DNA of 64,000 nt from Bdellovibrionales bacterium CG10_big_fil_rev_8_21_14_0_10_45_34 (GCA_002778785.1 PEZS01000001.1:124232-188231); one strand, 5' to 3'; shown: positions 1-18,181, counted from the first letter of the stretch. A program made the numbers and translations. The notes: generated by a model not told the origin, from the letters alone.

Positions 1-602
1 GTCATTTCGTGTGTGACAAGGAGACAAGGCAACTCTTGGTCCCTCACACATTGAAAAACAAAAGCTCGAAACTCTAATCGAAGCAAGGGATCGAGCTTTG
101 CAAAGGGTTCATCCAGCAACAACGCTCGCGGATTGCTGAGCAGTGTTCGAAGAAGACTCACGCGTGATCGTTGCCCACCAGACAGAGAGGTGGGCCGTCG
201 ATCGACATACCCTTCAAGGTCAGCCTTCTTCAGCATTTCGCGTACCCGATGCAGACGAGTTGCACGCGGTTCGTGTCCTTGCATTCCAAATAGCAGATTT
301 TCGCCAACCGACATATTTGGAAATAAAAGATCGTCTTGAAACATGAGTCCGAGCTTTCGCTCTTGAGGTGACTGCTTATCCAGTCGAATGCGGGTCTCGT
401 CATCCTTACCTATCCAGATTTCCCCAGAAGCGCTAAACTTTGGATCTAAAACTCCCGCGCAATAGCTGAGAAGGCTGCTTTTGCCTGAACCGCTGGGACC
501 TAAAACGCCCAACACTTCACCGTTAGCTATTGTAAGTCTTTCGATCTGAACCAAAATCCGCAGTGGACTTGCGATCGATATATTCTTTAGAATCATCGGC
601 AT
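1..602 (-). CDS. ABC transporter ATP-binding subunit (3' end runs off the window; absent from the ORF track)
   Basis: Own translation of the minus strand from ATG at 602 gives MPMILKNISI. It contains GVLGPSGSGKSSLL (Walker A), LSGGQRSRV (ABC signature), LLLDEPF (Walker B) and LVTHE (H-loop). The start overlaps the stop of the upstream permease by 10 nt. Confidence 0.9.
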   Translation of the reverse strand, partial: MPMILKNISIASPLRILVQIERLTIANGEVLGVLGPSGSGKSSLLSYCAGVLDPKFSASGEIWIGKDDETRIRLDKQSPQERKLGLMFQDDLLFPNMSVGENLLFGMQGHEPRATRLHRVREMLKKADLEGYVDRRPTSLSGGQRSRVSLLRTLLSNPRALLLDEPFAKLDPLLRLEFRAFVFQCVRDQELPCLLVTHEM

Positions 603-2239
603 GTCGATCCCTCCGGCCTTTGAGAAAATAGCGAGCAAAATAGAAATACTGCTGCGGGGAGCATGGCATTGGCTAAACCATAAACCGCAACCCAACGCCG
701 GTTTCCACTGCTGAGCGATGCGACAGTCTCGGTGGCCAAGGTCGTCCAATCTCCACCACCGAGCATGATTGTCGGTAAAAATTGCGAGACACTCACTGCA
801 AAGCCCACAGCAAACGCCGCAGCGATGGAACCTTTCAGCAACGGTACGCGGATTTTCAATAAAAATACGGTTTTACTTTTACCTAGGGACGCAGCCACCA
901 GAGCAAGCCTCGGATCCACTTGATGAAAAGCCTGCTGGAGTACCAGAAATACATAGGGAAAGACAAAAAGCATATGGCCCAGAAATACCGCAATGGAGGG
1001 ATGATAGATTCCAACACGCGAAAGCATCGAGTCTAACCCAATGACAGCGATTAAAGCCGGGAAGACAAGCATAAGAAAAACTGCGGTCGTCGCGATCTTG
1101 GTGTGTGCTCGAGAATCAAATTCAATCCAAAGAAGAACAGTAGCAATCGACGCAAGAGCAGAGCTGACGGCAAGTCCTAAAGTCTGAATCAAAGTGCCTC
1201 TCATGCTGGAAACTCCCTCACGCGCAAACTCCAAGGTCCAAGCAGGAGGTATCGGCTGATCAATCGTCCAGCTGTCTCCAAAAACCCAAAGCACCAAGGC
1301 CACGACAGACAGGATCAACGTAAATAAAATAAATAAAAGCATGGGTGACAGCGGAAGTGGGCGCTTTCCAATTTTGCCTTTACTCAAGAGCCAGCTTTTG
1401 AACCGGCCTAAACTCCAAAGCGCCCCTTCCCATCCGAAAACTCCGAGAGCGACCAAAGCTAACAACATCAGTGCTCCGCCAGACACTAAAGCCTGCGTCG
1501 ACTCTCCGGGGTCCTTGATCCAATCCCACAATACGAGCGCGAATACAGGGGGGTTCGTAGGGCCAAGGACCACCGCGACATCAACGACACAGATTGAATA
1601 CCCTAGGACAGCCCAAATTGCGTATCGCAGTCCATGCAGCACCTGCGGCCATTCGACCCACCACCAACTCGTCCAATTTGATCGGCCCAAACTATTGACG
1701 ATCTTTCTTGATGCTCCCACTGAATCTACCAGCGGAAGTCCCACATAAATTAAAAACAGAGACTCCTTCATGCCAAGAAAAAGACTTAACGTCCATGCTC
1801 CGACATCATGATCCAATTGAAAGGCATACTCTCTGCCGGGAAACAGGGAGCCCAAAACACGCACGAGCCAACCGCTATCTCCCACAAGTAGTAATAGCCC
1901 TGTTGCGAGTGAAAGGTGAGGAATGGAAATCAACGTTCCCAAAGCCCCAGTCGTCCACCAAGAATGTTGAGATCGAGATTTCGCGAGCCGAAACCAGCCC
2001 AGTGCCATACCAGTCAATAGGATTGCGAGCGCCGTACTGACCCAACCAACTTTCAACGTCAGGACCGCAGCGCCCATCGTGTAATTTGAAAAGAGGTCAG
2101 CCAGAGCACCTGTTCCGGAGGACGACGGCGATCCTAGAAATGCTCCAAGCATGCTGAACGCAGCAGGAATAAAAAACAGAATCAGAACAAAAATCCTCGA
2201 GACCCAAATCAACCCGCGACTCCGTATCGTCTTTGCCAT
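593..2239 (-). CDS. ABC transporter permease, fused two-domain type (ThiP/YnjC/FbpB-like size)
   Basis: 548-aa ORF, hydrophobic throughout with about 12 TM-like segments. It is sandwiched with overlapping ends between a binding-protein gene and the ATPase gene. Confidence 0.8.
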   Translation of the reverse strand: MAKTIRSRGLIWVSRIFVLILFFIPAAFSMLGAFLGSPSSSGTGALADLFSNYTMGAAVLTLKVGWVSTALAILLTGMALGWFRLAKSRSQHSWWTTGALGTLISIPHLSLATGLLLLVGDSGWLVRVLGSLFPGREYAFQLDHDVGAWTLSLFLGMKESLFLIYVGLPLVDSVGASRKIVNSLGRSNWTSWWWVEWPQVLHGLRYAIWAVLGYSICVVDVAVVLGPTNPPVFALVLWDWIKDPGESTQALVSGGALMLLALVALGVFGWEGALWSLGRFKSWLLSKGKIGKRPLPLSPMLLFILFTLILSVVALVLWVFGDSWTIDQPIPPAWTLEFAREGVSSMRGTLIQTLGLAVSSALASIATVLLWIEFDSRAHTKIATTAVFLMLVFPALIAVIGLDSMLSRVGIYHPSIAVFLGHMLFVFPYVFLVLQQAFHQVDPRLALVAASLGKSKTVFLLKIRVPLLKGSIAAAFAVGFAVSVSQFLPTIMLGGGDWTTLATETVASLSSGNRRWVAVYGLANAMLPAAVFLFCSLFSQRPEGSTCR

Positions 2240-3390
2240 TCGCGTTCAATATACTCCATCCAGCAGGCATGAGGTTCGTTTTGCGCGGGGCCACGCAAAG
2301 ACAAAGCCGGAAGTTTTATGCCCTGAGGTACTTTTGCAGAGTCCAACACTGTAGGGTCGCCCCAATTTGCCACGTCAGCCTTTCGAACCTGTGCTTCTGG
2401 CGAAGTCAGATGGTTGATCCACTGAAGCGCAGCCTGCTGCTTTTGCGAGTTAAATGGTATCGCTAAAAAATGAACATTAGCGATACCACCTTTTTTAAAA
2501 GTCGTCGCATAGGCGCCCGCGGGAAGTTCTTTTTTCAGAATCAATCCATCCACTTCAAGAGGATTGAAGCTCATTGACATCAGAAGCTGCTGGTCCATCA
2601 GCATTTGATGTAAAACTTGAGTGGAAGCGGGGAAGGTCTGAGCCTTCCGCCAAAGAAAGGGGTGCAGCTCGTCCAGAAATTTCCACAAAGGGGCGGAAGC
2701 ACTCGACGTGGTATCCGGAGTACACGCCTTTTGGAGGTTGCTGGATGTAGAAAGCTCCAAGAGGAGCTGCTTTAGAAATGTTGTGCCATGAAATTGCGGG
2801 GGCCTGACATAGGTGATTCGACCAGGGTTGGCCTTTGCATATGCCAAAAGCTCTGTCGCCGTCTGCGGCGCCAGAGGCGTTCGCTTGCGATCCCAGATAA
2901 ACACGAATTGGGCGCGTCCCCAGGGAACTTCAAATCCTTCGGTGACGGTAGAGAAATCGTTCAAAAACTGCGGGTCAGTCAAATTCATGTACTTTCGATT
3001 TTCAATCTTGGAGAGGAGCGGACCTGCCAGCAGGCCACTCTTTTTCATGGTCGCAAAATTTTCGCCGTTGAGCCAAACAACATCAATAGTACCCTTCGTC
3101 AGATTGCCTGAAGCTTTGTCCGACTGCACCTTTTTGATAACTGGCGGTAAGTCGTCAATCTTGATGTGCTGGACTTCAATACCCATCAATTTTTTAAAAG
3201 CTTCCGCTTCCGCTGCAATGTAGCGATTGATGCGCGGATCGCCACCCCATGCATGGAACTGAATCTTGACTGCGTCAGCTTCGAGTTGGTGGTTTATAAA
3301 AAACAAGGCCATAAGGACAAAAGTAAAGATACGAAGCACTCTCATAATTAACCCTTCACTGCGGCGACCTTGCTCTCTGGAGCAATTCAT
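2209..3390 (-). CDS. ABC transporter periplasmic substrate-binding protein (YnjB/ThiB-like class, tentative)
   Basis: 393-aa ORF with a signal-like segment MRVLRIFTFVLMALFFINHQLEADA. The ATG at 3390 gives a 4-nt overlap with the upstream stop (alternative start 3345). It lies directly upstream of the permease and ATPase. Confidence 0.65.
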   Translation of the reverse strand: MNCSREQGRRSEGLIMRVLRIFTFVLMALFFINHQLEADAVKIQFHAWGGDPRINRYIAAEAEAFKKLMGIEVQHIKIDDLPPVIKKVQSDKASGNLTKGTIDVVWLNGENFATMKKSGLLAGPLLSKIENRKYMNLTDPQFLNDFSTVTEGFEVPWGRAQFVFIWDRKRTPLAPQTATELLAYAKANPGRITYVRPPQFHGTTFLKQLLLELSTSSNLQKACTPDTTSSASAPLWKFLDELHPFLWRKAQTFPASTQVLHQMLMDQQLLMSMSFNPLEVDGLILKKELPAGAYATTFKKGGIANVHFLAIPFNSQKQQAALQWINHLTSPEAQVRKADVANWGDPTVLDSAKVPQGIKLPALSLRGPAQNEPHACWMEYIEREWQRRYGVAG

Positions 3391-4508
3391 TTCAATCTCG
3401 AAACCAGGACGTCAATAAAAGTTCTGTCCACACGCTCACAATATCTATCGGTTCCCGTACTCTGCGTGGAATTAAACTGTGCCTCCAAGAAGAGTTTGGT
3501 TCTGAACGGAACCCTCGGAAAAGTATCGTCTGACCTCTTCACAAGTTTTGTCCTGATATTGTCACTACAGGAAAAAAATTGCGGATGACTGATGTATCCA
3601 ACAAGAAGCGTGTCGAAAGGGATAAAACCGTCGAGTCCGGTAAAGAGTTTCCAAAGACGAATCCATGTTTTACTTTTTTGGAAAAGCCAAGGGCCCGCAA
3701 AGTGACCTGTTCGTAGGTTCGCCAAGATCGTGTCATTTATCAAACTTTCTCGCATCGCCTCGGTCGGAATCATTGTTATTGGAATTTTCTGCTCTAAAAT
3801 AAATCGGACCGACTCAACATCGTTATCAATATTTGTATCGGGTAAAATAACATTGTGAGGTCCAAGTCGCACGGGACTATTTGGTTTTCTCCCAGCCATT
3901 ACCACTAGCTCTTCGATCTGTGGCCGAAGGCTCGGATTAAGTCGAATGGCAGTTGCGATGTTTGTGAGCGGACCCAATGCCAAAATCCGTAACCTCTCGC
4001 GAGACAATGCGGAACTCAAAGCATCCGATGCTTCCGTTGCCGTTCCAAATTGTTTCGGCGATCCCGCACCCTTCCATACCCTAAAAGTCATTGGAGAAAA
4101 TCGACGAATGATGTCCATTGCGATCTGGTATTGCTTGCTGATATTTGCAATATTGCCATGAACAAGACTCACTCCAACGATCGATATTTCTGGCGACCTC
4201 ATTGCTTGAATCAGAGCGTATCCATCGTCGACATCTTTTCCCGGTTCTCCGATGGAAAGATCAGAGTCGATCCAAATCCGCGTTTCTGAGTACGCAATAC
4301 TGACAAAAAGCTGCGGGAGTAGCACAAAACAGAGTGTCCAAAGTGCAATAGATTTACGACTCAAAATTCCCCCTACATAATTTAGTCCATTTGCTTGTCC
4401 AATTATATTAATCTTGGCGAGACAAAACGACCAAGAAATTTCTTTCCTCGATTCCGAAAACGCCCACGAAATAAAAACGATCAGAATGAAACCGACCAGT
4501 CCAATCAT
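3387..4508 (-). CDS. Inosine/uridine-preferring nucleoside hydrolase family protein with N-terminal membrane/export segment
   Basis: IWIDSDLSIGEPGKDVDDGYAL is the IUNH Asp cluster with an insertion. ILALGPLTNIATAI, LVVMAG and DTNIDNDVESV are also present. About 70 aa with two hydrophobic stretches precede the catalytic domain. Confidence 0.8.
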   Translation of the reverse strand: MIGLVGFILIVFISWAFSESRKEISWSFCLAKINIIGQANGLNYVGGILSRKSIALWTLCFVLLPQLFVSIAYSETRIWIDSDLSIGEPGKDVDDGYALIQAMRSPEISIVGVSLVHGNIANISKQYQIAMDIIRRFSPMTFRVWKGAGSPKQFGTATEASDALSSALSRERLRILALGPLTNIATAIRLNPSLRPQIEELVVMAGRKPNSPVRLGPHNVILPDTNIDNDVESVRFILEQKIPITMIPTEAMRESLINDTILANLRTGHFAGPWLFQKSKTWIRLWKLFTGLDGFIPFDTLLVGYISHPQFFSCSDNIRTKLVKRSDDTFPRVPFRTKLFLEAQFNSTQSTGTDRYCERVDRTFIDVLVSRLK

Positions 4509-5107
4509 TGTTTTAACTCCTTAAAGGCCAAAGCGACTCGAGCTATGACCGTAAAGATAAGAATCGCTATCCATACCTTCACCGAAGTTCCGATGTACTG
4601 CGGTGCCAAGAGAAAAATTGAATAGGCGATTCCTGTTTCTCCACCCTCAGCGAGCCCAGCCCCAAGTTTTAGACCACGATTGTCGTTTTCGGTGAGTCCA
4701 AGTTCCTTTTCCAACGAGCCAAGTGCAAGAGCACCTGTAATACAAAGAACATACAATCCCATGACCAGGATCCACTCTCCGTGCAAATTAGGAAAGGCGA
4801 TCGAAAAGCCAAAAATCATTGCCGAGTAGGAAGCCATATCACATACGATGTCGAGAAATGCACCCAGAGGAGTTGCCTGCTGGGTCGCACGAGCATAGAT
4901 ACCGTCTGTACCATCTAGTAAGCGACTTAACCACCAGCCGATAAGGGCCGACGTGAACTCGCCTCTAGAAATTAGCCAGGCCGAAACAAGAGCGATGCTC
5001 AATGATCCGACCGAAATCATATTTGGCGTAAGCCCAAGAAAGGAGTAAAATCGTATTAGCTTTGTCGTATAAGCTGGCAGACCGGCGCGAAACCAGTTGT
5101 CTATCAT
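4505..5107 (-). CDS. CDP-alcohol phosphatidyltransferase family protein (YnjF-like size)
   Basis: 200-aa polytopic ORF. DGTDGIYARATQQATPLGAFLDIVCD matches D-G-x2-A-R-x8-G-x3-D-x3-D. Confidence 0.85.
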   Translation of the reverse strand: MIDNWFRAGLPAYTTKLIRFYSFLGLTPNMISVGSLSIALVSAWLISRGEFTSALIGWWLSRLLDGTDGIYARATQQATPLGAFLDIVCDMASYSAMIFGFSIAFPNLHGEWILVMGLYVLCITGALALGSLEKELGLTENDNRGLKLGAGLAEGGETGIAYSIFLLAPQYIGTSVKVWIAILIFTVIARVALAFKELKQ

Positions 5108-6234
5108 TTGATGTCCTTTTCTAAATTGAACGATTTCATGTAGCTGTTGTCTATATAGTTCTTGAGGAGAAGTGCCATTTTTCCGGCGATAAAGTGTTTC
5201 CCAAAGATAGCGTGTGCGGAGCTTGGTCCACTCAGTAAAATATTGAGTTGAGCTTTCGGTGGTACATAGGGTTTAAGATCGGATATCGCGCCCAATCCGT
5301 GTCTCAAATTGAACGCCATAAGGCGCCCCTGCTGTACAGCAGTGACTCCCGAACGAGGCAAGAACTTGCTCGGCTCGAAGGTCGTGCAATCGCCTGCAGC
5401 GAAAACGTTAGAATGAGCTCTCAGGAAACTGTCCACCACTACAAACCCAGAAGAGTCCCGTTGGATGTTAGAGATGTCGATGGATGGTGGTGATTTCATG
5501 GGCAGAATGGGAAAGAGAAAGTCATAACGAAATGCAGATTTTTCGCCTTGAAAAATGAGGTGACGATCCTTTGTTTCAACCACATCGTGATCGAAATGAA
5601 CTTCGACTCCTGCCTGTTGTAATGAGCGCAATAGCGAAAGAGATACTTTTGATTCGTAGTTTTTGGCGAGGGCCATGTCGCGAGTAAAGAGATGCACGCG
5701 ACTTCGATTCGCGCCATTCTTCTTCAAACGTAGGTTGAGGGCCGTGGCTACTTCAATTGAAGCAGCTCCACCACCAACCACTGCGAATAAGAGCTCTCGA
5801 CACGAAGAACATTCCCTTTGTACCTCTCGCCACTTTTCAACAAATGAAGTGATAGGTTTTACGTAAACGGATCTCACTTCTGATTCTGGATCCGTCGACA
5901 GTTTTGTCGGGACTCCCCCTACATTGAGAAACAGATAGTCGAACTCAAATGTAGTCCCGTCGCTAGCCAAAAGAATTTTCTTATCAGGGTCAATTTTTAG
6001 AACCATTGCTTGGACAAATGTAATCTTATTTAGTTTGCAGAGTCTCTCTAAGTCTATCGCTAAATCTTTGCTCTGAAGCTCGCCCAAAATAAATCGTGGA
6101 AGTAAGCCTGAATAAAAAGTGTTCTTTTCCGGAGAGATGAGAGTATAAGTGGCGTCGCGTCCATGTTGTGTGGACAGAGATTTAATGACCTCAAGATTAG
6201 CGTGTCCTGCCCCGACAAAAATTATCTTTTTCAT
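5104..6234 (-). CDS. FAD/NAD(P)-dependent pyridine nucleotide-disulfide oxidoreductase family protein
   Basis: Start placed at ATG 6234 (MKKIIFVGAGHANLEV, Rossmann fold at the N-terminus). The longest-ORF start at 6309 would overlap the rhodanese gene by 62 nt. A second dinucleotide fold FAVVGGGAASIEVA and a C-terminal FAAGDCT motif are typical of Ndh/SQR-like enzymes. Confidence 0.75.
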   Translation of the reverse strand: MKKIIFVGAGHANLEVIKSLSTQHGRDATYTLISPEKNTFYSGLLPRFILGELQSKDLAIDLERLCKLNKITFVQAMVLKIDPDKKILLASDGTTFEFDYLFLNVGGVPTKLSTDPESEVRSVYVKPITSFVEKWREVQRECSSCRELLFAVVGGGAASIEVATALNLRLKKNGANRSRVHLFTRDMALAKNYESKVSLSLLRSLQQAGVEVHFDHDVVETKDRHLIFQGEKSAFRYDFLFPILPMKSPPSIDISNIQRDSSGFVVVDSFLRAHSNVFAAGDCTTFEPSKFLPRSGVTAVQQGRLMAFNLRHGLGAISDLKPYVPPKAQLNILLSGPSSAHAIFGKHFIAGKMALLLKNYIDNSYMKSFNLEKDIK

Positions 6235-6247
6235 AAAGTGCCCCAGT

Positions 6248-6799
6248 CTACCATATTGCTTTCCAATCGTGAGGAAGGAGATTCCACTCTGCCCCATAAA
6301 TATGGGCAACTTTTACTGGCTTTCCTTGAGACCAAAGCTGCTTTCCGGAATGAGCCCAAAGCAAAATTCCGCCCCTTAAACTAAATGCATTAAATCCCTT
6401 TCGACGGAGATCGATAGCTGCTAACCCACTACGATAGCCGATAGTGCAGTAAACAATTATTTCATTGTTTTTATATTTTTCGGATTGTTGCTCGAATTCT
6501 GCCACAGAGATCGAGTTTTCTATTCTGGAAGTATCCATTTCTTTCTCAGTTCGGACATCCAAAATTGTGACTTTTGTAGAAATCAAGTTGACCTGATCCG
6601 CCTCCACGCTTGGAATTTCTCCCAACGCCTTCTGATAATCGGACAACATATTATTAATAAGATTTCTTTTTTCGACGTCGGATTGAGGCGTCTGACTAAT
6701 GCCCATGAAATGGCCCAATGAATGACCAAATGTTCTCCACACCACAGTCGCGAAGATCAATAAAACCAAGGAAATCCATATAGCTCTCCTCTTTGTCAT
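6248..6799 (-). CDS. Single-domain rhodanese (sulfurtransferase) with signal anchor
   Basis: N-terminal RRAIWISLVLLIFATVVW, an active-site loop IIVYCTIGYRSG, and C-terminal SLRGGILLW. Confidence 0.8.
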   Translation of the reverse strand: MTKRRAIWISLVLLIFATVVWRTFGHSLGHFMGISQTPQSDVEKRNLINNMLSDYQKALGEIPSVEADQVNLISTKVTILDVRTEKEMDTSRIENSISVAEFEQQSEKYKNNEIIVYCTIGYRSGLAAIDLRRKGFNAFSLRGGILLWAHSGKQLWSQGKPVKVAHIYGAEWNLLPHDWKAIW

Positions 6800-8118
6800 G
6801 CTGAATCCTTCCGAGGCGCCTTGTGATAGCCGATTCCTACTAAATCGATTGAATGCGGAATTCCCGAGATATTTTCATTTGGTAAGGAAATGGCGGCTTC
6901 AGTAGGCGCAAATCCTTGTGTAATCGCGATTTCCATAAGCTTGCTCGTGACAAGAGCCCTGTATCCCGATGATTTGGTGTGCTTCTCCACTTTGGCGCTT
7001 AAATTGACAGCCTCGCCAATAACAGTAATTTCCATGCGGTCTTCGTGGCCAATCACGCCAAAAATCACTTCGCCCAGTGCCACAGCGATTCCAAAATCGA
7101 AGGATCTACCTTCTTTGGACATCTCGGCCCGCCAAATATCAAGACGTCTATAGATACCTTCAAGGGCAAGCATTGCATCTTTTGCGAATGATTGGCTGGT
7201 CGCTACCGCTCCAAAATGGGCTAGGACTCCGTCTCCCATATACTTATCGACGCTGCCGTTATTTTTGAATATTTCGGCAGCGACGATGCGCTGATATTGT
7301 CCCAGGTAACCGACAACTTCTTCTGCAGAAATTTCATAGGAGAGCTTTGAAAAGCCCCGGAGATCAATCATCATCGTTGCTGCCGTACGTTTAGATCCCT
7401 GGCCCGGAGAGATTTCTCGATCATGGCCTGACATTGACTGAAACGCCGCCTTACCCACAAGTCGCTCCATAGTCAAAAATCGAGACGATTGTTCAGCAAA
7501 GTTTGTAAGCAATTTCTTCTTCCTGTAGACGGCTAAAGCGCAAACGAAAGTGACTACTGCTAGGACAAATATTTTTTCTAACTCCGCCCCAACTAGAACT
7601 CGATCTGGAAGCAGGTACTCGGAAAACTTGCGCGTAATTATGATGTCCTTTTGTGAAACGGAATAGACGAGAACAAGCAACCAACAGAAGCTGGAGAGCA
7701 GGCTAACAAAGACTATTTTAATAAAGTTGTACGACAGACAACGCACGCAAATGAGGAAGAAAAAATAGAGGAATGTCGGAGCATGCAAACTAAGAGGCAC
7801 TGGGCGTCCATACTGAATGTGGAAGAGAAAAATGAGCGTAGTGAGCACAAAAACGTCGAGTGCGAGAAATATGTATGACAGGCTCGGGGTAGATTTTCGG
7901 TTCGCAGTGACAAAGTAACGTAACGCAAGCCAAGGTATGTAGAACGAAAGCAGAATTTTTACCGGCTCGAAACAAACTTCCGATGACCTAGAAAATCCTT
8001 TTGGGGTGAGGAGATATAAACACAAAGCTAAAATTGCGAGTGCCAATTGGGCGACCGCTGCAAGTTTCTCAGCCTTCAGCTCTTCTACTATGATAAACCG
8101 TTCTATTTTTGTCTTCAC
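6796..8118 (-). CDS. Membrane-anchored class III adenylate/guanylate cyclase
   Basis: About 6 TM helices are followed by a cyclase homology domain: TMMIDLRGFSKLS, DKYMGDGVLAHFG, VIGEAVNLSAKVE. There are 4-nt overlaps with both neighbours. Confidence 0.85.
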   Translation of the reverse strand: MKTKIERFIIVEELKAEKLAAVAQLALAILALCLYLLTPKGFSRSSEVCFEPVKILLSFYIPWLALRYFVTANRKSTPSLSYIFLALDVFVLTTLIFLFHIQYGRPVPLSLHAPTFLYFFFLICVRCLSYNFIKIVFVSLLSSFCWLLVLVYSVSQKDIIITRKFSEYLLPDRVLVGAELEKIFVLAVVTFVCALAVYRKKKLLTNFAEQSSRFLTMERLVGKAAFQSMSGHDREISPGQGSKRTAATMMIDLRGFSKLSYEISAEEVVGYLGQYQRIVAAEIFKNNGSVDKYMGDGVLAHFGAVATSQSFAKDAMLALEGIYRRLDIWRAEMSKEGRSFDFGIAVALGEVIFGVIGHEDRMEITVIGEAVNLSAKVEKHTKSSGYRALVTSKLMEIAITQGFAPTEAAISLPNENISGIPHSIDLVGIGYHKAPRKDSA

Positions 8119-9503
8119 TGAGCGTCCTCTAAAGATATTGCATGCGGAAATCGCTTCTGTTCGATTCTCTTAGAATACAGCCACCAAACCCAAAATCCGA
8201 AAAATACTGCGTACTCAATTGTTCGAAACCATGGTGCCAATTCTGGCGTCCAGTGCCATGAGTAGGCCGCAACGACAAGGTACGAGAAAACGAGCCACGG
8301 GGTATGCCCTGTGAATATCGATAGTGGAAGAACCCAAAGCACGTACCAAGCATTCACCACAGGAGAAAGTAGTAGAAGAGTTCCGATGAGTCCTAGCGAT
8401 GATTTTGGAATTTCTTTTGGATCCTTGCCGCCTTTGAATTGCCATACGCTGTAGAAGAGGAAAGCGACGCCAAGCGCGACCTTTGTTACAAAACGGTTAT
8501 CCAATGAACTACTCAGATGAACACCGGTCAAACTCAATGATGATATGAGGTAGTCTACGACCACGGTAGCAACCTGAAAAATGCCCGCATTGAATTTCCA
8601 ATATTGCGCAAATGTATGAGTCCCAGAAAATATATCTGGGCTAGTCAGAAGAAAAGGAGCGTAGAGACCAAGCAAAATTGAGAAATAAAGTGCTAGATGA
8701 GATTTCCATTTCTCATCTGAGCGAGCAATCAACGGTACCAACACAATCGGAAACAGCTTTACAGAAGTCGCGAGTGATAGTGCTGCCCAACCTAACTTCA
8801 TCCGCCTGACCCAAAAAAAATACAAGGTTGTTGTCAATAACAACACCACGAGAGCATCGAGGTGAATCGAGTTCGCAATTTCTTTGATCACCAGAGGATT
8901 AAGCAAATAGAGAAAACTCAGACTGGGGCTTTTTCCTGCGGAGATTAGCCATTTGTAAAGTACAAACCAGGTCGCAAGGTCGCAGCCTAGTAAGAATACT
9001 TTCAATGCAATTACTGAGTCTGAAAACAGTAAATGAAGACCGGCAAATGTTAGAACTGCGCCTGGGGGGTATATCGTCTTGATATCACCCCATTGAATAT
9101 TCTGTCGGTACTGCACCGAGAGCCCATCAAGTGCGGGGTCCTCGGGCGCAAAGGTGTAGGGGTTAAAACCGCTTGCCAGTACGCGACCATCCCACAGATA
9201 TCTCCAGAAGTCGTTTTCTAGAATTGGAGGCGAAAAGGAAACAACAACTCGGGAGGCGACCCCAATAAAGATAAGTATCCAGGGAAATTTGTTTCTAGGA
9301 CTCGGAAGCAGCCTCGCAATCCAGAAAAAAACACAGAATTGGACTGAAAACAGAATCGCTAGCCCAACAAACTCGTGAGTCCAATTTCCGACAAAGAAAT
9401 AGCCAAGCGAAGATACAAGTAGGATTATTGGTGCGATGCTTCCAAGCGCCCTATGTTCAAAAATAATTGTTACTCCCTGTAAGAATTTAGGCCTAGCGCC
9501 CAC
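8115..9503 (-). CDS. Polytopic membrane protein, GT-C-type glycosyltransferase-like (DUF2029/GT87/PMT_2-like)
   Basis: 462 aa with at least 10 hydrophobic segments. The loop ENDFWRYLWDGRVLASGFNPYTFAPEDP resembles GT-C mannosyltransferase-type loops. The family call is from memory only. Confidence 0.45.
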   Translation of the reverse strand: MGARPKFLQGVTIIFEHRALGSIAPIILLVSSLGYFFVGNWTHEFVGLAILFSVQFCVFFWIARLLPSPRNKFPWILIFIGVASRVVVSFSPPILENDFWRYLWDGRVLASGFNPYTFAPEDPALDGLSVQYRQNIQWGDIKTIYPPGAVLTFAGLHLLFSDSVIALKVFLLGCDLATWFVLYKWLISAGKSPSLSFLYLLNPLVIKEIANSIHLDALVVLLLTTTLYFFWVRRMKLGWAALSLATSVKLFPIVLVPLIARSDEKWKSHLALYFSILLGLYAPFLLTSPDIFSGTHTFAQYWKFNAGIFQVATVVVDYLISSLSLTGVHLSSSLDNRFVTKVALGVAFLFYSVWQFKGGKDPKEIPKSSLGLIGTLLLLSPVVNAWYVLWVLPLSIFTGHTPWLVFSYLVVAAYSWHWTPELAPWFRTIEYAVFFGFWVWWLYSKRIEQKRFPHAISLEDAQ

Positions 9504-9653
9504 TTATTGTCGAAACACCGAATTACCGTACGTTTGTAAGTGTCTCCTAAGGGGGAAATCTTACAGAGGCGAGCAAAAATATTAGCATTTGCGGAGCCTT
9601 GATCGTTCAGTCCAAGAAACCTTGAGTCCACAGGGCCGGGCATAGGTCGCCCG

Positions 9654-10430
9654 GTGATCTCGAGAAGGGAAAAAGTGAAACCTACAGAGCGCCAATCGAG
9701 AATCTCCCATACTTTCTCAATTGTCGTACCCATTTTGAATGAGCGCGAAATCATTCAATCCACACTCGATTATCTTTGGCTGATCAGTGCTGAGCTAAGT
9801 GCGGCAACCAAAGACAATTGGGAGTTTGTTATTGTCGATGCCGGAAGTGCCGACGGAACTGGGGAAATACTCAGGAGCGTTCAAGCACCACCGAATTGGA
9901 TACTCGTCCAGGGCAATATCGAGAAACCTTCTGTAGGAAAAACAGTTTCTCTCGGAATTTCAAAGGCATCGGGCTCCATCCTACTCATTTTGCCCTGTGA
10001 CTGTCGATTGGGAATTGAGGCGCTTCTTGAAGTTGACGACCTTGCCCGCAGAAAAAATGTGATTTGCGGAGGTTTTCCGAAAACCTATGAACCGAGCTCT
10101 TCGCTTCTGAAAACCTATCAAGCGGTTCAGAACGTTGTTCGACTTAGAATGTTTCGACATGTCGTATGGACGAACGGTATCTTTTTTTCGAGAAGTCTCA
10201 TCAACAAGAAGGTATTTCCAGTCTTAGGGTTTCTAGAGGACATTTTGCTTTCCGATCAACTGCGCAATCATCAGAACTGGAGCCTCTTGAAAAGCAGAAT
10301 TTGGGTGTCTTCTCGCCGCTACTTTAAGCGCTCACAATTGAAAAGAATGTCATTGAATATCTTGATTCTAATTACATATAGGCTCAAATTTATGTCAGAA
10401 ATTCAGCTTAGAGCAATTTACTACAAATAA
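9654..10430 (+). CDS. Family 2 glycosyltransferase
   Basis: FSIVVPILNEREII, FVIVDAGSADGTGEIL and ILLILPCDC are typical GT2 N-terminal motifs. The start codon is GTG. Confidence 0.75.
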   Translation: MISRREKVKPTERQSRISHTFSIVVPILNEREIIQSTLDYLWLISAELSAATKDNWEFVIVDAGSADGTGEILRSVQAPPNWILVQGNIEKPSVGKTVSLGISKASGSILLILPCDCRLGIEALLEVDDLARRKNVICGGFPKTYEPSSSLLKTYQAVQNVVRLRMFRHVVWTNGIFFSRSLINKKVFPVLGFLEDILLSDQLRNHQNWSLLKSRIWVSSRRYFKRSQLKRMSLNILILITYRLKFMSEIQLRAIYYK

Positions 10431-10442
10431 GTTAGAGACAAG

Positions 10443-10940
10443 GTGATGCCGAAGTTACCCAAGACAAAGAAAAATATCGAAGTGTGCGAGCGGTTTAAGG
10501 AGCCAAAATCGTCATTTGTGCAATTGATGACCGCCCCTCAGGTGAAGAGCTGGCGCGCATTACTAGGGGCTTTTCAGTACGTCTTTTCTAATCTGGAGAA
10601 AGGCCTGACTTCAGAAGGCTATTCAATGTCTCGGTTTCAAATTCTCCTCACCCTGTATTTTGACGGACCGCATTCAGCGATTAATATTTCGCGCAAACTA
10701 TTGGTAACGAGAGGAAATGTGTCGACGTTTCTCAAGCGTCTTTTGGCGGACGGACTCGTTGAGGCCTCTGACCGGTCAAAATCAGGTAAACGGCCATTGT
10801 TTTGCCTGACCGATAAGGGCATCGAAATCTTCGAATCCGTTTTTCCAAGACACATTGATCGCGTGAAGTCTCTAATGCCCAAACTGGATGCTTCGGTAAT
10901 CGAAACTTTGTCTCAAATCCCCAGGGATTCGAAGAATTAA
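10443..10940 (+). CDS. MarR family transcriptional regulator
   Basis: Winged-helix region SMSRFQILLTLYFDGPHSAINISRKLLVTRGNVSTFLKRLLADGLVE. It starts 12 nt after the GT2 gene. Confidence 0.75.
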   Translation: MMPKLPKTKKNIEVCERFKEPKSSFVQLMTAPQVKSWRALLGAFQYVFSNLEKGLTSEGYSMSRFQILLTLYFDGPHSAINISRKLLVTRGNVSTFLKRLLADGLVEASDRSKSGKRPLFCLTDKGIEIFESVFPRHIDRVKSLMPKLDASVIETLSQIPRDSKN

Positions 10941-12315: not shown

Positions 12316-12702
12316 GTGTTTCAATTCATGAAGAAAATATTCACAATGCCGTTTCCATGGAATCTTTGGGTGATGGTTCTTGGAGTCGTAAATCTCGCTG
12401 GCGGTATTTACTTTTTCGATTCGCTCGAGGGAAAGTTAGCTCTGATCTCAATCCTTGGAGCGATGGTCATAATGCAGGTTATTTTCTCTAAATTTGGTTT
12501 CGTTCGACTATTAGGTCTTGGGCACATTATTTTTTGGGTCCCGTTTGTTTCGTGGTGCGTTTTTCGTATCCTCGAATGGAACAGTCTCGGTTTCAATTTT
12601 CGAATCTGGTTATGTGCAGTGATTATGCTCAACTCAATTTCGCTGGCAATCGACTTTGTTGATGTTTGGAGATATCATCGGGGCGAGAGAGCAGAAATGT
12701 GA
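12316..12702 (+). CDS. Small integral membrane protein, unknown family
   Basis: 128 aa with 4 hydrophobic segments. Its last ~60 nt are duplicated at 14302-14366. Confidence 0.4.
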   Translation: MFQFMKKIFTMPFPWNLWVMVLGVVNLAGGIYFFDSLEGKLALISILGAMVIMQVIFSKFGFVRLLGLGHIIFWVPFVSWCVFRILEWNSLGFNFRIWLCAVIMLNSISLAIDFVDVWRYHRGERAEM

Positions 12703-13002: not shown

Positions 13003-14070
13003 ATGACGCCAATTGCTGAAAATGAAGGAGGTCGCTCAGATCAACATCCGCTTCGAGTCCTGGTTCTCTCAGGCTCGGGTCGACGCCAGTACAATTGCCC
13101 TGGGGTTGATTCGAAATCAAGAAGTCTCATGTTGAGAATGAAAGATCGACTTCCCAAAGAATGGAAAATAGATATTGAGGATTTGGGAAACGTTTATGGC
13201 CGTGCGCGAATACAGAGCTGCAACGCGTGCGTATCTACGTCCATGGCTCTTTGTGTTTGGCCGTGTAACTGCTATGAGCCTAATAATAAAAAAGAGCCCG
13301 ATCTCATGTGGGATCTCGACTTATATTCTCGCCTTGATCTTGCAGACGCCTGGGCAATCATAGGCCCTGTGAATTGGTATGGTCCGACAAGTAATCTCAA
13401 GCTTATGTTTGATCGACTTGTCTGCATGAGTGGAGGAAATCCCCGAGAAGATTTAATAAATCATAAGAACCCTGAGCTAGCTATGACACTTGAACATAGG
13501 CCTGAGTGGAAAGAACTCAGTCTCAATCACCTGGAGGGCCGGACCGCTGGAATTTTTTGTTACGGCGACGGGGGCGGTGATGAACTGGATACAAGTGGCA
13601 GACCTAAAATTTTGCGTCACCCTGAGTATTTCAATTCTAATGAAGAGCCCTTCGAAAATGTTCGAGATGCCTATGCCCCCTTAGTTTGGCAGTGTCGATA
13701 TGGCGGCGTGGAGGTCCCGGACCACCTATGGAAATATAAAGAATTTGGTCGAGAAAAAAAGTATAGTGATAACCAAGCAGAGCATATGGTTTTAGAACCG
13801 AGCGTTTATGAGAGTTTCGATTCATGGACCGATGAGTTTGGAAGTTTTGTTCTTCAAAAGGGAAAAGTCCAACCTGGTAAATTTAGGGCCCACGGTTATA
13901 AAGCTCCAAGTCATATGTGGGCGGACATTAAACTTAAATGGCGGGCTATTCGAATGAGTCTGGGCAAATCCATTGCTGATTCATCTCCCGGAAGGCAAGA
14001 GCTTATGAACCTCAATCGGGATGCGCGGTTTAATACAAAGCGCGGTGAAAGTGAGAACGTTGAACTATAG
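13003..14070 (+). CDS. Flavodoxin-fold / NADPH-dependent FMN reductase-like protein with Cys cluster (iron-sulfur flavoprotein-like)
   Basis: LRVLVLSGSGR at the N-terminus, a Cys cluster CNACVSTSMALCVWPCNC, and ADAWAIIGPVNWYGPTSNLKLMFDRL. A long C-terminal extension is of unknown type. Confidence 0.55.
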   Translation: MTPIAENEGGRSDQHPLRVLVLSGSGRRQYNCPGVDSKSRSLMLRMKDRLPKEWKIDIEDLGNVYGRARIQSCNACVSTSMALCVWPCNCYEPNNKKEPDLMWDLDLYSRLDLADAWAIIGPVNWYGPTSNLKLMFDRLVCMSGGNPREDLINHKNPELAMTLEHRPEWKELSLNHLEGRTAGIFCYGDGGGDELDTSGRPKILRHPEYFNSNEEPFENVRDAYAPLVWQCRYGGVEVPDHLWKYKEFGREKKYSDNQAEHMVLEPSVYESFDSWTDEFGSFVLQKGKVQPGKFRAHGYKAPSHMWADIKLKWRAIRMSLGKSIADSSPGRQELMNLNRDARFNTKRGESENVEL

Positions 14071-16002: not shown

Positions 16003-16023
16003 ATTTCCTCTTTCTCTAGTTAA

Positions 16024-16038
16024 GGAACGATCATTCCT
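16024..16038. promoter_or_regulatory. Candidate TetR operator box 1 (GGAACGATCATTCCT inside the 22-bp near-palindrome TTAAGGAACGATCATTCCTTAA, 16020-16041)
   Basis: The identical 15-mer recurs at 16655-16669. It lies in the 53-nt gap between the TetR stop and the SRPBCC start. Confidence 0.55.
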
Positions 16039-16055
16039 TAATTGGTTAAATTTTT

Positions 16056-16643
16056 TTAGCTCAAATTATCCACTATTTTTAAAACACCAGTAATATAGTT
16101 CTTAACAACGCCTTCAGAGACGCCCGCTCTTAAGAGCGAATTTATCGCGAACACGCTTCCTAGAAAAAAATGAGCCTGTTCTAAAATCTGAGTTTCGGAT
16201 CTGCAATTCCGAAGCTGAGCATTTGTGAGTGCATCAACAAAATAGGATTCGATTTTTGAAATTGATGAATTCACGATTTTAGCTGCACCTCTATCAATCT
16301 TCGCTATCTCCATGGCACTAAAACACATTAAACAGCCGTACTTCGCCATCGGATGATCGAGGAGATGAAGAAATTGTTCAAAAAAGGAGCGAATAGCACC
16401 GAGATCAGCATTCTGTTGCCTCAAAGCGCGCGTGTTTACATCAATGACCTGAGAAATGTAAAGTTCCAGGCTCTTTTTCAAGAGGTTATTCTTGCCCCCG
16501 AAGACATTGTAAAGACCTGAACGCTGAACCTTGGTCGCCTGAACCAAGTCCTCAACAGAAGTGCCGGAGGCACCTTTCTTCCAAAAGAGGAGCATGGCCT
16601 TTTCTAAGGCTTTGTCCGGTTCAAATTCGAGATTTCGCGCCAT
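16056..16643 (-). CDS. TetR/AcrR family transcriptional regulator
   Basis: N-terminal HTH ALEKAMLLFWKKGASGTSVEDLVQATKVQRSGLYNVFGGKNNLL. The protein is 195 aa. Confidence 0.85.
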   Translation of the reverse strand: MARNLEFEPDKALEKAMLLFWKKGASGTSVEDLVQATKVQRSGLYNVFGGKNNLLKKSLELYISQVIDVNTRALRQQNADLGAIRSFFEQFLHLLDHPMAKYGCLMCFSAMEIAKIDRGAAKIVNSSISKIESYFVDALTNAQLRNCRSETQILEQAHFFLGSVFAINSLLRAGVSEGVVKNYITGVLKIVDNLS

Positions 16644-16654
16644 ACATCCTTTCG

Positions 16655-16669
16655 GGAACGATCATTCCT
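16655..16669. promoter_or_regulatory. Candidate TetR operator box 2 (GGAACGATCATTCCT)
   Basis: Exact copy of box 1. It sits 11 nt upstream of the TetR ATG, immediately 5' of the RBS AAGGA. Confidence 0.55.
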
Positions 16670-16950
16670 ATAAACAGAATAATGGATAACCACAGATATG
16701 TCAAGTTAGCAGGTGTTCGATATGGAAAGTGCGCTGCCTCTCATGCACGTCTCAGTATGATTCGTAATTTGAGCTATGGTTAATGAGATTTTTTTTGCTT
16801 GAAGCGGGTAACAGTAAAGCTTTGCCCCAACTAGCGGACTGGCTGTGCTTCAATAACTTAAGTTGTGCGACTTGGACTTGGCGAATGATATTTGGCAGAA
16901 GACCAGTTGATGCGGCCAGGATTGCCAAAAGCGCGGCTACTTGAATTGCT

Positions 16951-17550
16951 CTATTTAATCCCATTAGTAATTCCCTTTTCTGCCTCATGGCGTTTTAAAA
17001 TTTGTTTCACGACTTCATGTTTCCAACTTTTGCCGAACCGAGTGGAAATTTTGTGCTCATTCAATGTTCGAGCGATGGATCGAAACGAATGTCCCCCTTG
17101 CCACATTCTCCACATATCGAGGACCGTTTGACGTTCACGCGCGTCCACAACAAGTTTTCCATCCAGGTAGCAATAGCCAAAAGGAGTGTTTCCGGCGCGC
17201 ATGACATTTGGTGAGTTTGAAATTGGTTCGTGGTTTCTACGGAAAGATCGTATGGCGGTGCCGCCCTCTATAAGGGTCTTGCGAACCGTTCCTTTTGGCA
17301 TTCCGGTCCGTTTTGATATCTCCCCAAGTGAGAGCCCGGACTCGTAAAACGCGGTCAATTTCTCAATCTTGTTGACCTTATAGGAGAACGGGAGTTCAAT
17401 GATTTCGTGAGGTTGAGAGAGTTGCCTATTGTCGGACTTGCTCCACCAAGTACCACAACAAGGTCCTGACCGGACACATAGGTTACAGATTGTACCGAAG
17501 ACATAGGTAACACTTTCGCGCCGAAGGGGTTTTCGCCGGCTTCGACGCAA
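16951..17550 (-). CDS. HTH plus 'recombinase' domain protein lacking a serine-recombinase catalytic domain (true start unclear)
   Basis: LSLGEISKRTGMPKGTVRKTL (HTH), then TPFGYCYLDGKLVVDARERQTVLDMWRMWQGGHSFRSIARTLNEHKISTRFGKSWKHEVVKQIL, the pattern of the recombinase domain of large serine recombinases. The first ~55 codons of the ORF overlap the IS remnant in another frame and are probably not coding. Confidence 0.45.
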   Translation of the reverse strand: MRRSRRKPLRRESVTYVFGTICNLCVRSGPCCGTWWSKSDNRQLSQPHEIIELPFSYKVNKIEKLTAFYESGLSLGEISKRTGMPKGTVRKTLIEGGTAIRSFRRNHEPISNSPNVMRAGNTPFGYCYLDGKLVVDARERQTVLDMWRMWQGGHSFRSIARTLNEHKISTRFGKSWKHEVVKQILKRHEAEKGITNGIK

Positions 17551-17901
17551 TTTGATTCGTCATCAAAGTATCCCAAGTCATAATCCATAAAACTCACCAT
17601 CCAGATCCTATCATCAACTTGCCTCACGCCGACACTTTGACCAGCAAAGACTCGACTAAAATTAATTTTTCGTCTGCCCACGCAGATTCGACCACATTGA
17701 GTGACCGTGATCGTCTTGTCGCGAAGTGGATATTCAACATCTGGAAGGGTCTCGGTAGGATCTTTCGGAGGCCCCATACCGATCGTTTGGATATTGCATT
17801 TCGAGATCCGGGTGCGGGCGCTCGTACCTGTATTCCTGCTTAAAAACTTCAAATTTCTCCTGCTGCTGCAAGAGATTTTGACCCCGGCTTTGTTGAGTTT
17901 T
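17355..17901 (-). mobile_element. 5'-truncated, frameshifted remnant of an rve (DDE integrase-core, IS481/IS3-like) transposase gene
   Basis: Frame a (17901 down to about 17745) reads QQEKFEVFKQEYRYERPHPDLEMQYPNDRYGAS. Frame b reads LPDVEYPLRDKTITVTQCGRICVGRRKINFSRVFAGQSVGVRQVDDRIWMVSFMDYDLGYFD...KVLPMSSVQSVTYVSG. No DDE core lies upstream. Confidence 0.7.
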
Positions 17902-18181
17902 TTAGTGTATAGTTCGTGGCGATACAAGACAGCATTTTTATCTATTTTAACTATTCATAAATCTTTCGTATTATAGTTCATGTGGTGGTAGGGAGCTAAT
18001 CACCTAACCTACGGAGGTTAAAATGCTGACTTCAAAACGAGCGACCTTACAGCCACTACTTGAATCTGAGAAAGGCATCCACCTTACTGTGTTTATCTCT
18101 GTTTTTGGTCCTTGGGCTTTAGCTATTTGATAAGTTCAAACTAGAGCGAACGGTCCGTCACTTAAGAGCAAATGGAGATTT

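Follow-up and report, generated by a model that had tools for sequence, protein, structure and literature searches.

An operon with a YnjBCD-type importer inside an ArsS/ArsM island of a Bdellovibrionales bacterium, and its possible part in arsenosugar salvage and lipid assembly

What is served by an operon that joins an ATP-binding cassette (ABC) importer of the Escherichia coli YnjBCD type to a nucleoside hydrolase and a CDP-alcohol phosphatidyltransferase? Such an operon is encoded on the minus strand at one end of a 64,000-nucleotide stretch of DNA (GCA_002778785.1, PEZS01000001.1:124232-188231; ‘the window’ in what follows) from the metagenome-assembled genome (MAG) of Bdellovibrionales bacterium CG10_big_fil_rev_8_21_14_0_10_45_34. 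A first-pass annotation of the window had proposed that a nucleoside- or sulfur-bearing compound might be imported or salvaged here and coupled to a CDP-activated lipid or alcohol; for a nucleoside-derived compound and a lipid this fits the gene modules and the ArsS context described below. We find that the operon extends beyond the window and comprises at least ten genes, that two conserved modules have been merged in it in this lineage alone (YnjBCD with a YnjF-type transferase, and a hydrolase with a kinase), and that it lies inside an ArsS/ArsM arsenosugar island. From protein families and gene context we tentatively read it as the salvage and lipid-assembly arm of that island, ending in an arsenosugar phospholipid, and put the chance of this a little under even.

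Open reading frames (ORFs) in the window were called mechanically, and families were assigned by Pfam and NCBIfam profile scans together with sequence matches to PDB entries. The operon past the window edge was read from metagenome contigs. Two sets of loci served for comparison. The Ynj set, obtained by scanning genomes with a YnjB alignment, holds 80 loci, every one from a named proteobacterium or an unclassified MAG and at no more than 48% identity, and was searched by tblastn with all operon proteins and the E. coli ynj proteins. The ArsS set, likewise searched by tblastn, holds 80 loci retrieved from metagenomes with ArsS as query, of which 32 span 9 kb or more. Coordinates are collected in Table 1.

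The ORF map shows minus-strand genes that adjoin or overlap one another all the way from 9503 to the window edge. There are 4-nt overlaps at 8115-8118, 6796-6799, 5104-5107, 4505-4508 and 3387-3390, overlaps of 31 nt (2209-2239) and 10 nt (593-602) inside the transporter, and a 13-nt gap (6235-6247) between the rhodanese and flavoprotein genes, given a flavoprotein ATG start at 6234. The flavoprotein ORF is 5104-6234 or 5104-6309 depending on its start; we use the ATG at 6234 because the Rossmann motif and the TIGR03169 alignment fit there. In the order of transcription the complete proteins other than the flavoprotein have 462 (GT-C), 440 (cyclase), 183 (rhodanese), 200 (transferase), 373 (hydrolase), 393 (substrate-binding protein, SBP) and 548 (permease) amino acids. 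Every junction in the first-pass annotation is reproduced by these coordinates, and all nine of its family assignments were supported (Pfam PF01066, PF00581, PF01156, PF07992 and PF00211; NCBIfam). Its compact unit thus holds; its count of nine genes is too low. An identical transferase is encoded on nine metagenome contigs, which extend the operon past the window edge to a tenth gene, for a 356-aa MtnK-like kinase, overlapping the ATPase gene by 4 nt (L001, L002, L095). The gene order at this end of the operon is hydrolase, SBP, permease, ATPase, kinase, the transporter being flanked by hydrolase and kinase.

It had also been held that the junctions leave no room for internal promoters or terminators. 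The gaps are indeed as small as was claimed, with two starts uncertain; promoter-like and terminator-like matches in the operon region do not exceed shuffled expectation, and this motif scan neither shows nor excludes internal signals. One transcript for the whole operon is plausible from the layout. The 150-bp divergent region before the first gene, read in sequence, is the presumed operon promoter region, and a motif scan against shuffles gave no significant consensus promoter signal in it.

The importer has the B-C-D gene order, fused permease and short ATPase of E. coli YnjBCD. Its SBP scores 405.6 bits on NF008633, the YnjB family model (cut-off 203), and is 42% identical to E. coli YnjB; the permease is 30% identical to YnjC over 446 aa (E 4e-37) and the ATPase 40% identical to YnjD. 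Judged by these matches it is a true YnjBCD relative, as the first-pass annotation had supposed. The signal peptide of the SBP begins at M16, which may be its start instead of the ORF start; the gap to the hydrolase gene would then be about 41 nt. A sequence search gave no solved structure for the SBP. The possibility of a bona fide ThiBPQ or Fe(III) importer had been raised from the outset, and an ordinary thiamine, Fe(III) or polyamine importer in a coincidental cluster would account for weak NCBIfam matches of the permease and ATPase to ThiP, ThiQ, ModB and PotC models. The scores speak otherwise: the ThiP models give the permease 15-32 bits against cut-offs of 395-970, ThiQ gives the ATPase 133 bits against 245, and the SBP has no ThiB or FbpA match in NCBIfam and stands at twice the cut-off of the YnjB model. 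We reject such importers on these scores and, given also that YnjBCD-YnjF linkage is conserved in other genomes, regard this explanation as very improbable.

That linkage concerns the transferase. It scores 47 bits on PF01066 (threshold 22), and the CDP-alcohol transferase motif reported earlier is there in its full form, D..DG..AR..G...D...D (DGTDGIYARATQQATPLGAFLDIVCD). The protein and E. coli YnjF align full-length at 26% identity (E 2e-15) and share one NCBIfam match profile, so that its description as YnjF-like stands. An identity matrix separates two clades. Clade A comprises the transferases of this MAG and of contigs L177 and L106, which are 46-53% identical to each other and 24-34% identical to the proteobacterial YnjF clade; clade B comprises proteobacterial YnjF and the transferase of contig L115 (47% identity to E. 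coli YnjF). Compared singly, the L177 transferase, from an ArsS operon, is 54% identical to that of the window (E 3e-73) and the L106 transferase 46%. Both clades share the same genomic partners, being found in Ynj and in ArsS contexts.

In the Ynj set YnjBCD has a YnjF-type gene as neighbour in 56-60 of the 80 loci, and in the non-enteric ones this gene directly follows ynjD on the same strand. A DedA/VTT protein occurs in 58 loci; in 15 non-enteric loci it takes the form of a fusion of about 720 aa (VTT plus FAD disulfide oxidoreductase) beside ynjB, directly upstream in most. These fusions are 49-59% identical to the VTT-flavoprotein fusion found on the ArsS side, which makes the fusion a hub common to Ynj and ArsS loci. 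Relatives of the operon flavoprotein occur in four loci, and tblastn detected the hydrolase, kinase, GT-C protein, cyclase, single-domain rhodanese and GT2 protein in none of the 80. A plasmid search with the transferase gave a minimal YnjF-SBP-permease-ATPase unit on an Aliiroseovarius plasmid, and also an unrelated sphingolipid-like cluster of Roseomonas.

The hydrolase and kinase form the second module. The Asp cluster and GPLTN box noticed earlier in the hydrolase can both be read, the latter within LGPLTN. The cluster (D81, D83, D94, D95) carries an insertion relative to the DxDxxxDD form that we take to be usual for the PF01156 family, and D81, D83, D94, D95, T182, N183 and D299 are invariant in an alignment of 13 hydrolase homologues. 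Export, likewise suggested before, is predicted from a signal-peptide-like segment (RKSIALWTLCFVLLPQLFVSIAYS, followed by E), and many homologues have an N-terminal signal peptide, anchor or lipobox (LLGAC in L011). The subfamily is rare, with 36 matches, the next best at 40% identity. The kinase has the aminoglycoside-phosphotransferase fold. Its only NCBIfam match is to S-methyl-5-thioribose (MTR) kinase, TIGR01767 (E 1e-16, 61 bits against a cut-off of 275), and its only kinase-type PDB relatives are MTR kinases (the MtnK structures 2olc and 2pyw), whose HGD...D.EF motifs it keeps. It would thus belong to a related but distinct subfamily from MtnK, also rare (14 matches). MTR kinases phosphorylate C1 of 5-substituted ribose. 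Sequence prediction puts export signals on the hydrolase, SBP and rhodanese and none on the kinase, flavoprotein and ATPase; for the hydrolase, SBP, kinase and ATPase this fits cleavage outside the cell membrane, import, and phosphorylation inside.

In five unrelated contigs (L004, L006, L011, L012, L014) a kinase gene is immediately upstream of a hydrolase gene of the same subfamily, the kinases being 33-36% identical to the tenth-gene kinase. The full ten-gene combination was found in this lineage only. The reservation that the gene combination might not be conserved therefore applies to the whole operon and not to its modules. The operon could serve generic scavenging of S-adenosylmethionine (SAM)-derived nucleosides with no arsenic involved and with the transferase and other genes as passengers: the exported hydrolase would cleave methylthioadenosine (MTA) or 5'-deoxyadenosine supplied by prey or by the surroundings, YnjBCD would import methylthioribose or 5-deoxyribose, and the kinase would feed sulfur or carbon salvage. 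MTR kinases are the best characterised relatives of the kinase, the five pairs have no ArsS within 10 kb, and a rhodanese and an SQR-like flavoprotein suggest sulfur chemistry. Yet this scheme leaves unexplained both the coupling of the importer to a YnjF-type transferase, which also recurs in ArsS operons, and the bracketing of the operon by orthologues of ArsS-operon genes. Moreover, no MtnA/B/C/D- or DrdI/DrdA-type genes were found in the first 27 kb of the window or on L095, the family scan not extending to ORFs at 28-64 kb. We consider it unlikely.

The bracketing is seen when the two sides of the operon are compared with ArsS operons of other contigs. Beyond the kinase, contig L095 carries on the opposite strand an 81-aa gene, CMD, MerP-like, MerT, MerR, a YHS protein and DUF547; then the VTT-flavoprotein fusion (forward), a second CMD gene (opposite) and a PHO4 transporter (forward); and then, forward, ArsS, a 380-aa membrane protein and an ArsM-like methyltransferase. 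Among these, CMD, MerP, MerT, MerR, DUF547 and the VTT-flavoprotein fusion are far-side orthologues of ArsS-operon genes. On the window side the orthologues are the MarR, DoxX-like and 128-aa genes: 11881-12297 matches the 139-aa gene of L177 (53% identity, E 3e-38) and 12316-12702 its 132-aa gene (50%, E 6e-39). The divergent GT2 protein next to the operon aligns over its full length, below threshold, with TIGR04283, the ‘arsenosugar biosynthesis glycosyltransferase’ family. The ArsS family itself, TIGR04167, is named ‘(seleno)protein’ in NCBIfam.

Three contigs show the corresponding arrangements. L106, whose ArsS is 74% identical, reads MarR, ECF sigma, CMD, MerP, MerT, MerR, flavoprotein (40% identical to that of the operon), DUF547, VTT-oxidoreductase (OR), ArsS, ArsM, MIP, MTAP, TIGR04283 and TIGR04282, with the transferase further on; set against this order, the GT2 gene and the ten-gene operon have the MarR/sigma pair on one side and the CMD-MerP-MerT-MerR block on the other. 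That block thus also accompanies ArsS in L106, as MerT and MerP do in L115. A forward operon in L115 ends with DedA, FAD-OR, ArsS, ArsM, MTAP, TIGR04283, TIGR04282, the transferase of the YnjF clade, DUF547 and an ArsC-like gene. L177 has a single co-directional operon of VTT-OR, the 139-aa gene, ArsS, a 370-aa gene, ArsM, MTAP, GT2, DUF2064, PHO4, the CDP-alcohol transferase, an OlsE-like hydroxylase, the 132-aa gene and CNT; its hydroxylase and CNT suggest a lipid end-product and nucleoside transport in the pathway of that operon. YnjF-type transferases are thus inside ArsS operons in two other contigs (L177, L115) and in the ArsS locus of a third (L106). Across the ArsS set the VTT-flavoprotein fusion lies beside ArsS in 34 of the 80 loci (up to 77% identity), ArsM is present in 23, TIGR04282, TIGR04283 and PHO4 in 14 each, an MTAP-type phosphorylase and DUF547 in 10 each, relatives of the window GT2 in seven, a YnjF-type transferase in two (plus L177) and the flavoprotein in one or two. 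The rhodanese, cyclase and GT-C protein were found by tblastn in none.

A trace of the operon's assembly may survive at the start of the hydrolase ORF. Its first 35 or so codons (4404-4508) resemble the N-terminus of the CNT (NupC-type) nucleoside transporter of L177, where the gene is intact, with a local alignment score of 61 against 23±4.5 for composition-preserving shuffles (0 of 5000 reach 61) and a sub-threshold match to Pfam Nucleos_tra2_N. An alternative hydrolase start, TTG at 4364 after GGGGGA, would give a clean signal peptide and may be the real one, in which case the roughly 140 nt before it are CNT-remnant coding potential. The segment 4404-4508 is probably a gene-replacement scar. 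We infer that a CNT gene once followed the transferase gene and was replaced by the hydrolase-importer-kinase set, and that the two may be alternative ways of bringing the same nucleoside-derived sugar inside. A search for homology between the 81-aa genes after the operon here and the CNT gene of L177 found none.

Taken with the gene order, families, module conservation and ArsS context described above, the substrates, direction of flow and lipid product of a salvage and lipid-assembly arm would be as follows. The exported IU-type hydrolase would act in the periplasm, cleaving a 5'-modified adenosine of outside origin; the first choice of substrate is 5'-deoxy-5'-dimethylarsinoyl-adenosine (DDMAA), which ArsS produces by adenosylating dimethylarsenite, DMAs(III) (PMC13598754); MTA-like nucleosides would be the fallback. 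The YnjB-type SBP and YnjCD would import the resulting 5-modified ribose, and the cytoplasmic MtnK-like kinase would phosphorylate it at C1, giving the same ribose-1-phosphate that an MTAP-type phosphorylase makes elsewhere from the endogenous ArsS product. TIGR04282/04283-type enzymes would convert this intermediate into a riboside alcohol, the YnjF-type transferase would join the alcohol to CDP-diacylglycerol to yield an arsenosugar-type phospholipid, and the nearby DedA(VTT)-flavoprotein fusion would handle that lipid across the membrane.

Several of these steps have parallels. In methionine salvage a hydrolase and a C1 kinase (MtnN and MtnK) equal one phosphorylase (MtnP). In ArsS clusters the step from the ArsS product to 5-dimethylarsinoyl-ribose-1-phosphate would fall to MTAP-type enzymes, and their recurrence makes a 5-substituted ribose-1-phosphate a plausible pathway intermediate. 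A CDP-alcohol phosphatidyltransferase is the type of enzyme needed to make an arsenosugar phospholipid from a glycerol arsenoriboside and CDP-diacylglycerol, and the OlsE-like lipid hydroxylase of L177 points to a lipid product. DedA proteins transport lipids (bioRxiv 10.1101/2022.02.03.479048).

Other observations weigh against this arsenic assignment. By tblastn, the hydrolase, kinase and YnjBCD are in none of the 80 other ArsS loci, and ArsS is in none of the 80 Ynj loci. About 8 kb of mostly opposite-strand genes (MerR, MerT, MerP, CMD, YHS, DUF547) separates the operon from ArsS, and the island carries mercury- and copper-type genes, so that co-location could reflect a general metal-stress island. 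In other contigs the kinase and hydrolase genes form isolated pairs that have no arsenic gene within 10 kb and fit ordinary MTA or 5'-deoxyadenosine salvage. The divergent GT2 protein is only a sub-threshold relative of TIGR04283, true YnjF forms a clade sister to that of the window transferase (24-34% identity), and four of the ten proteins, the rhodanese, flavoprotein, cyclase and GT-C protein, have no step in the proposed pathway. Finally, contig L178, whose ArsS is 88% identical, keeps MTAP after ArsM; this MAG therefore probably has MTAP too, and the hydrolase and kinase would then not be needed for a de novo route. The idea that this pair replaces a missing MTAP is weakened accordingly, and we read the pair as a parallel salvage route.

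A wider claim would be that YnjF-type transferases are the missing arsenosugar-phospholipid synthases, that YnjBCD, including that of E. coli, imports arsenoribosides or a closely related riboside alcohol for direct incorporation into membrane lipid, and that DedA(VTT) proteins flip the product; the operon would then add to arsenosugar metabolism a new salvage branch of periplasmic hydrolase, importer and C1 kinase. We find this doubtful.

The four proteins outside the proposed pathway may act in As/S redox or thiolation, signalling, and periplasmic glycosyl transfer. The flavoprotein aligns over its full length with TIGR03169, the SelD-associated ‘Nterm_to_SelD’ family, at 234 bits (cut-off 310); its nearest PDB relatives are NDH-2 and SQR enzymes, and its orthologue in the ArsS locus L106 is the one noted above. 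The rhodanese has the active-site loop YCTIGYRS behind a signal anchor, as reported before, with the six-residue CTIGYR loop of sulfurtransferase type, and scores 75.5 bits on NF045521, ‘rhoda_near_glyco’ (cut-off 145). It was tried as a YnjE orthologue and rejected: it is a single 183-aa domain, YnjE has 435 aa, and BLASTP gives E 0.04 over 50 residues. Thus, of the three E. coli ynj parts said to recur here, YnjBCD and a YnjF-like transferase do so and YnjE does not. The CMD protein near the operon was similarly rejected as a YnjA orthologue, showing no similarity to E. coli YnjA.

These proteins raise the question of sulfur or selenium trafficking and redox, in which the rhodanese, the TIGR03169-type flavoprotein and YnjBCD would together set a compound with persulfide or selenium in motion. 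In keeping with this are the TIGR03169 score, the sulfurtransferase-type loop, the neighbouring CMD and YHS proteins, whose families have selenoprotein members, and the E. coli neighbours YnjE, a periplasmic rhodanese, and YnjA, which is AhpD-like. However, the rhodanese is not orthologous to YnjE, the ‘seleno’ names denote selenocysteine-containing variants of families that NCBIfam ties to ArsS, and the hydrolase, kinase and lipid transferase are left unexplained. No SelD, YedE/F or cysteine desulfurase was found among the operon, its flanks to about 14 kb and L095, a scan that leaves out most of the window. We judge this quite unlikely.

The cyclase domain scores just above the PF00211 gathering score (23.9 against 21.9) and matches the PDB adenylate cyclase 2w01 (E 1e-17); it keeps the metal motifs DLRGF and GDG and the transition-state Asn but has Lys in place of the transition-state Arg. 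The GT-C protein has weak NCBIfam matches to MptA/MptB models (24-29 bits against cut-offs of 40 and 439) and no local Pfam match. With the GT2 protein, these two could belong to the making of an envelope glycolipid like the mycobacterial phosphatidylinositol mannosides and lipomannan (PIM/LM): the importer would supply a head-group polyol, the transferase would make a phosphatidyl-polyol anchor of it, GT2 would charge polyprenyl phosphate, the MptA/B-type GT-C protein would extend the anchor in the periplasm and the cyclase would regulate the process. The GT-C family, the divergently adjacent GT2 gene and the best NCBIfam matches of the transferase, archaetidylinositol-phosphate synthase (59 bits) and phosphatidylinositol-phosphate (PIP) synthase (41 bits), agree with this, but none of these scores comes near its family cut-off. 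GT-C and cyclase are absent from both sets of 80 loci, none of the scanned proteins was assigned to an inositol-phosphate synthase or phosphatase, and the hydrolase and kinase would go unused. We hold the glycolipid to be improbable.

Set beside known systems, the operon and its surroundings most resemble the E. coli ydjXYZ-ynjABCD, ynjE and ynjF genes, with YnjB, YnjC and YnjD orthologues, a YnjF-like transferase, and DedA/VTT and AhpD/CMD proteins nearby, the importer-transferase linkage being conserved across Proteobacteria as it is here. They differ in having a rhodanese other than YnjE, a CMD protein other than YnjA and a transferase of a sister clade, and the E. coli cluster lacks the hydrolase, kinase, flavoprotein, cyclase and GT-C protein. 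E. coli is not known to have ArsS or ArsM, and neither was seen in the 12-kb ydjX-ynjF stretch of MG1655. With the ArsM/ArsS clusters (Synechocystis ArsM and ArsS; TIGR04167, TIGR04282, TIGR04283, TIGR04169) the island shares ArsS and an ArsM-like gene, a TIGR04283-like GT2 adjoining the operon, and orthologues of the transferase, flavoprotein, MarR, DUF547, VTT-flavoprotein and small membrane proteins; in canonical clusters the phosphorylase is a cytoplasmic enzyme of the MTAP type, and an ABC importer, a hydrolase and a kinase are lacking.

Pairing a hydrolase with a C1 kinase follows the logic of MtnN/MtnK (or MtnP) in methionine salvage and DrdK in 5-deoxyribose salvage, and the kinase is homologous to MtnK. 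Unlike MtnN, the hydrolase is an IU-type, Ca-dependent N-ribohydrolase, predicted to be exported, and does not have the PNP/UDP fold; here, too, an ABC importer stands between the two enzyme genes, and no downstream salvage genes were seen in the scanned ORFs. As an analogy only, phosphatidylcholine synthase (Pcs) with a choline ABC importer and the PIP synthases show a small transferase coupling an imported or soluble alcohol directly to CDP-diacylglycerol; the Pcs and PIP-synthase models score 20 and 41-63 bits, far below their cut-offs. The first operon gene probably shares its family, which uses polyprenyl-phosphate-sugar donors, with mycobacterial MptA/MptB. Apart from the low model scores, the difference is that the host is a Bdellovibrionales MAG with no other lipomannan genes.

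The finding is built from known parts, and its main value is a specific hypothesis for YnjBCD/YnjF and for the late arsenosugar-lipid steps, two problems that become testable together. In the literature searched we found no functional study of ynj genes or arsenic link of ydjX, and none linking arsenolipids or arsenosugars to CDP-alcohol transferases, DedA or DUF547; of arsenosugar biosynthesis, only the ArsM and ArsS steps were found characterised there (PMC13598754, PMC12159101). Among the major arsenic species of algae and seafood are arsenosugar phospholipids (PMC11626214), and a genetic handle on their synthesis and bacterial uptake matters for arsenic cycling and food safety. Even if the arsenic assignment is wrong, a YnjF-type transferase travels with an ABC importer or with a riboside-making operon, which points to a head-group-salvaging phospholipid synthase.

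Table 1. Features of the operon, its flanks and related ArsS loci (window coordinates unless a contig is named)
Feature	Position	Strand	Evidence or remark
ABC ATPase, YnjD-like, N-terminal 200 codons	1-602	-	PF00005; full protein 223 aa, runs past window edge
Fused two-domain ABC permease, YnjC-like, 548 aa	593-2239	-	Homology to E. coli YnjC
Periplasmic SBP, YnjB family	2209-3390	-	SBP_bac_8; NF008633
IU-type nucleoside hydrolase, predicted exported	3387-4508	-	PF01156, 95.8 bits vs 34.2
CDP-alcohol phosphatidyltransferase, YnjF-type, 200 aa, about 6 transmembrane segments	4505-5107	-	PF01066
FAD/NAD(P) flavoprotein, NDH-2/SQR type, TIGR03169-related	5104-6234	-	PF07992 (Pyr_redox_2)
Single-domain rhodanese, 183 aa, N-terminal signal anchor	6248-6799	-	PF00581
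Membrane protein, hydrophobic N-terminal half, C-terminal class III nucleotidyl cyclase domain	6796-8118	-	PF00211 (Guanylate_cyc)
Polytopic GT-C-type glycosyltransferase, probably MptA/MptB family, first operon gene	8115-9503	-	PF26314, precomputed for identical protein (L096)
Divergent intergenic region	9504-9653	.	150 bp, between operon and GT2 gene
GT2 glycosyltransferase, TIGR04283-related, divergent from operon	9654-10430	+	TIGR04283, E 1e-29, 103.6 bits vs 182
MarR-type regulator	10443-10940	+	PF01047; 48-50% identity to MarR beside ArsS clusters L106, L177
Two small membrane-protein genes, 138 aa (DoxX/MauE-like) and 128 aa	11881-12702	+	L177 ArsS-operon orthologues
355-aa protein, weak NADPH-dependent FMN reductase domain, Cys-rich motifs	13003-14070	+	Directly after 138-/128-aa membrane genes
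Recombinase-domain fragment and overlapping ORF	16951-17550; 17355-17927	-	PF07508; second ORF without family match
715-aa protein, phospholipase D/cardiolipin-synthase-like HKD domains and C-terminal VTT (DedA) domain	25218-27365	+	
MerR-MerT-MerP(HMA)-CMD block without true mercuric reductase	L095:8386-9854	opposite	
DUF547	L095:10579-11487; L011:9137-9994; L025; L115:10962-11714; L177:4432-5223		
VTT-flavoprotein fusion, 753 aa (DedA/VTT and FAD disulfide oxidoreductase)	L095:11508-13769	forward	
ArsS	L095:15789-16745	forward	TIGR04167, 451 bits vs cut-off 300; about 8 kb beyond operon, outside window
Membrane protein of about 380 aa between ArsS and ArsM	L095:16742-17884; L177:8824-9936; L178:998-2140		No Pfam/NCBIfam match
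OlsE-like lipid hydroxylase and CNT nucleoside transporter	L177:14924-15622 and 16020-17252		Inside ArsS operon

Among the other genes of the island, the VTT-flavoprotein fusion was rejected as a true mercuric reductase: it has the CxxxxC site, lacks the C-terminal Cys pair and scores below the MerA cut-off. Homologues of the roughly 380-aa membrane protein number 80 and include several from MAGs of Bdellovibrionaceae or Bacteriovoracaceae; the protein is not always encoded beside ArsS (L179, L180). Outside the island, DUF547 also recurs in one Ynj locus and, divergently, beside a stand-alone kinase-hydrolase pair (L011, 40% identity), and is a fourth family to connect these settings.

On the window side, the 355-aa protein at 13003-14070 has no NCBIfam match, the ArsH models included. 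The recombinase fragment and the ORF overlapping it, a few kb past the island genes, may be mobile-element debris at the island boundary. The 715-aa protein is a second pairing in the window of a lipid head-group enzyme with a VTT domain. In or beside two of the ArsS loci there are genes of MNIO ‘bufferin’ maturases (BufB, HvfC, HvfX), associated with a copper-binding ribosomally synthesized and post-translationally modified peptide (L106:18351-19962, L115:359-3272).

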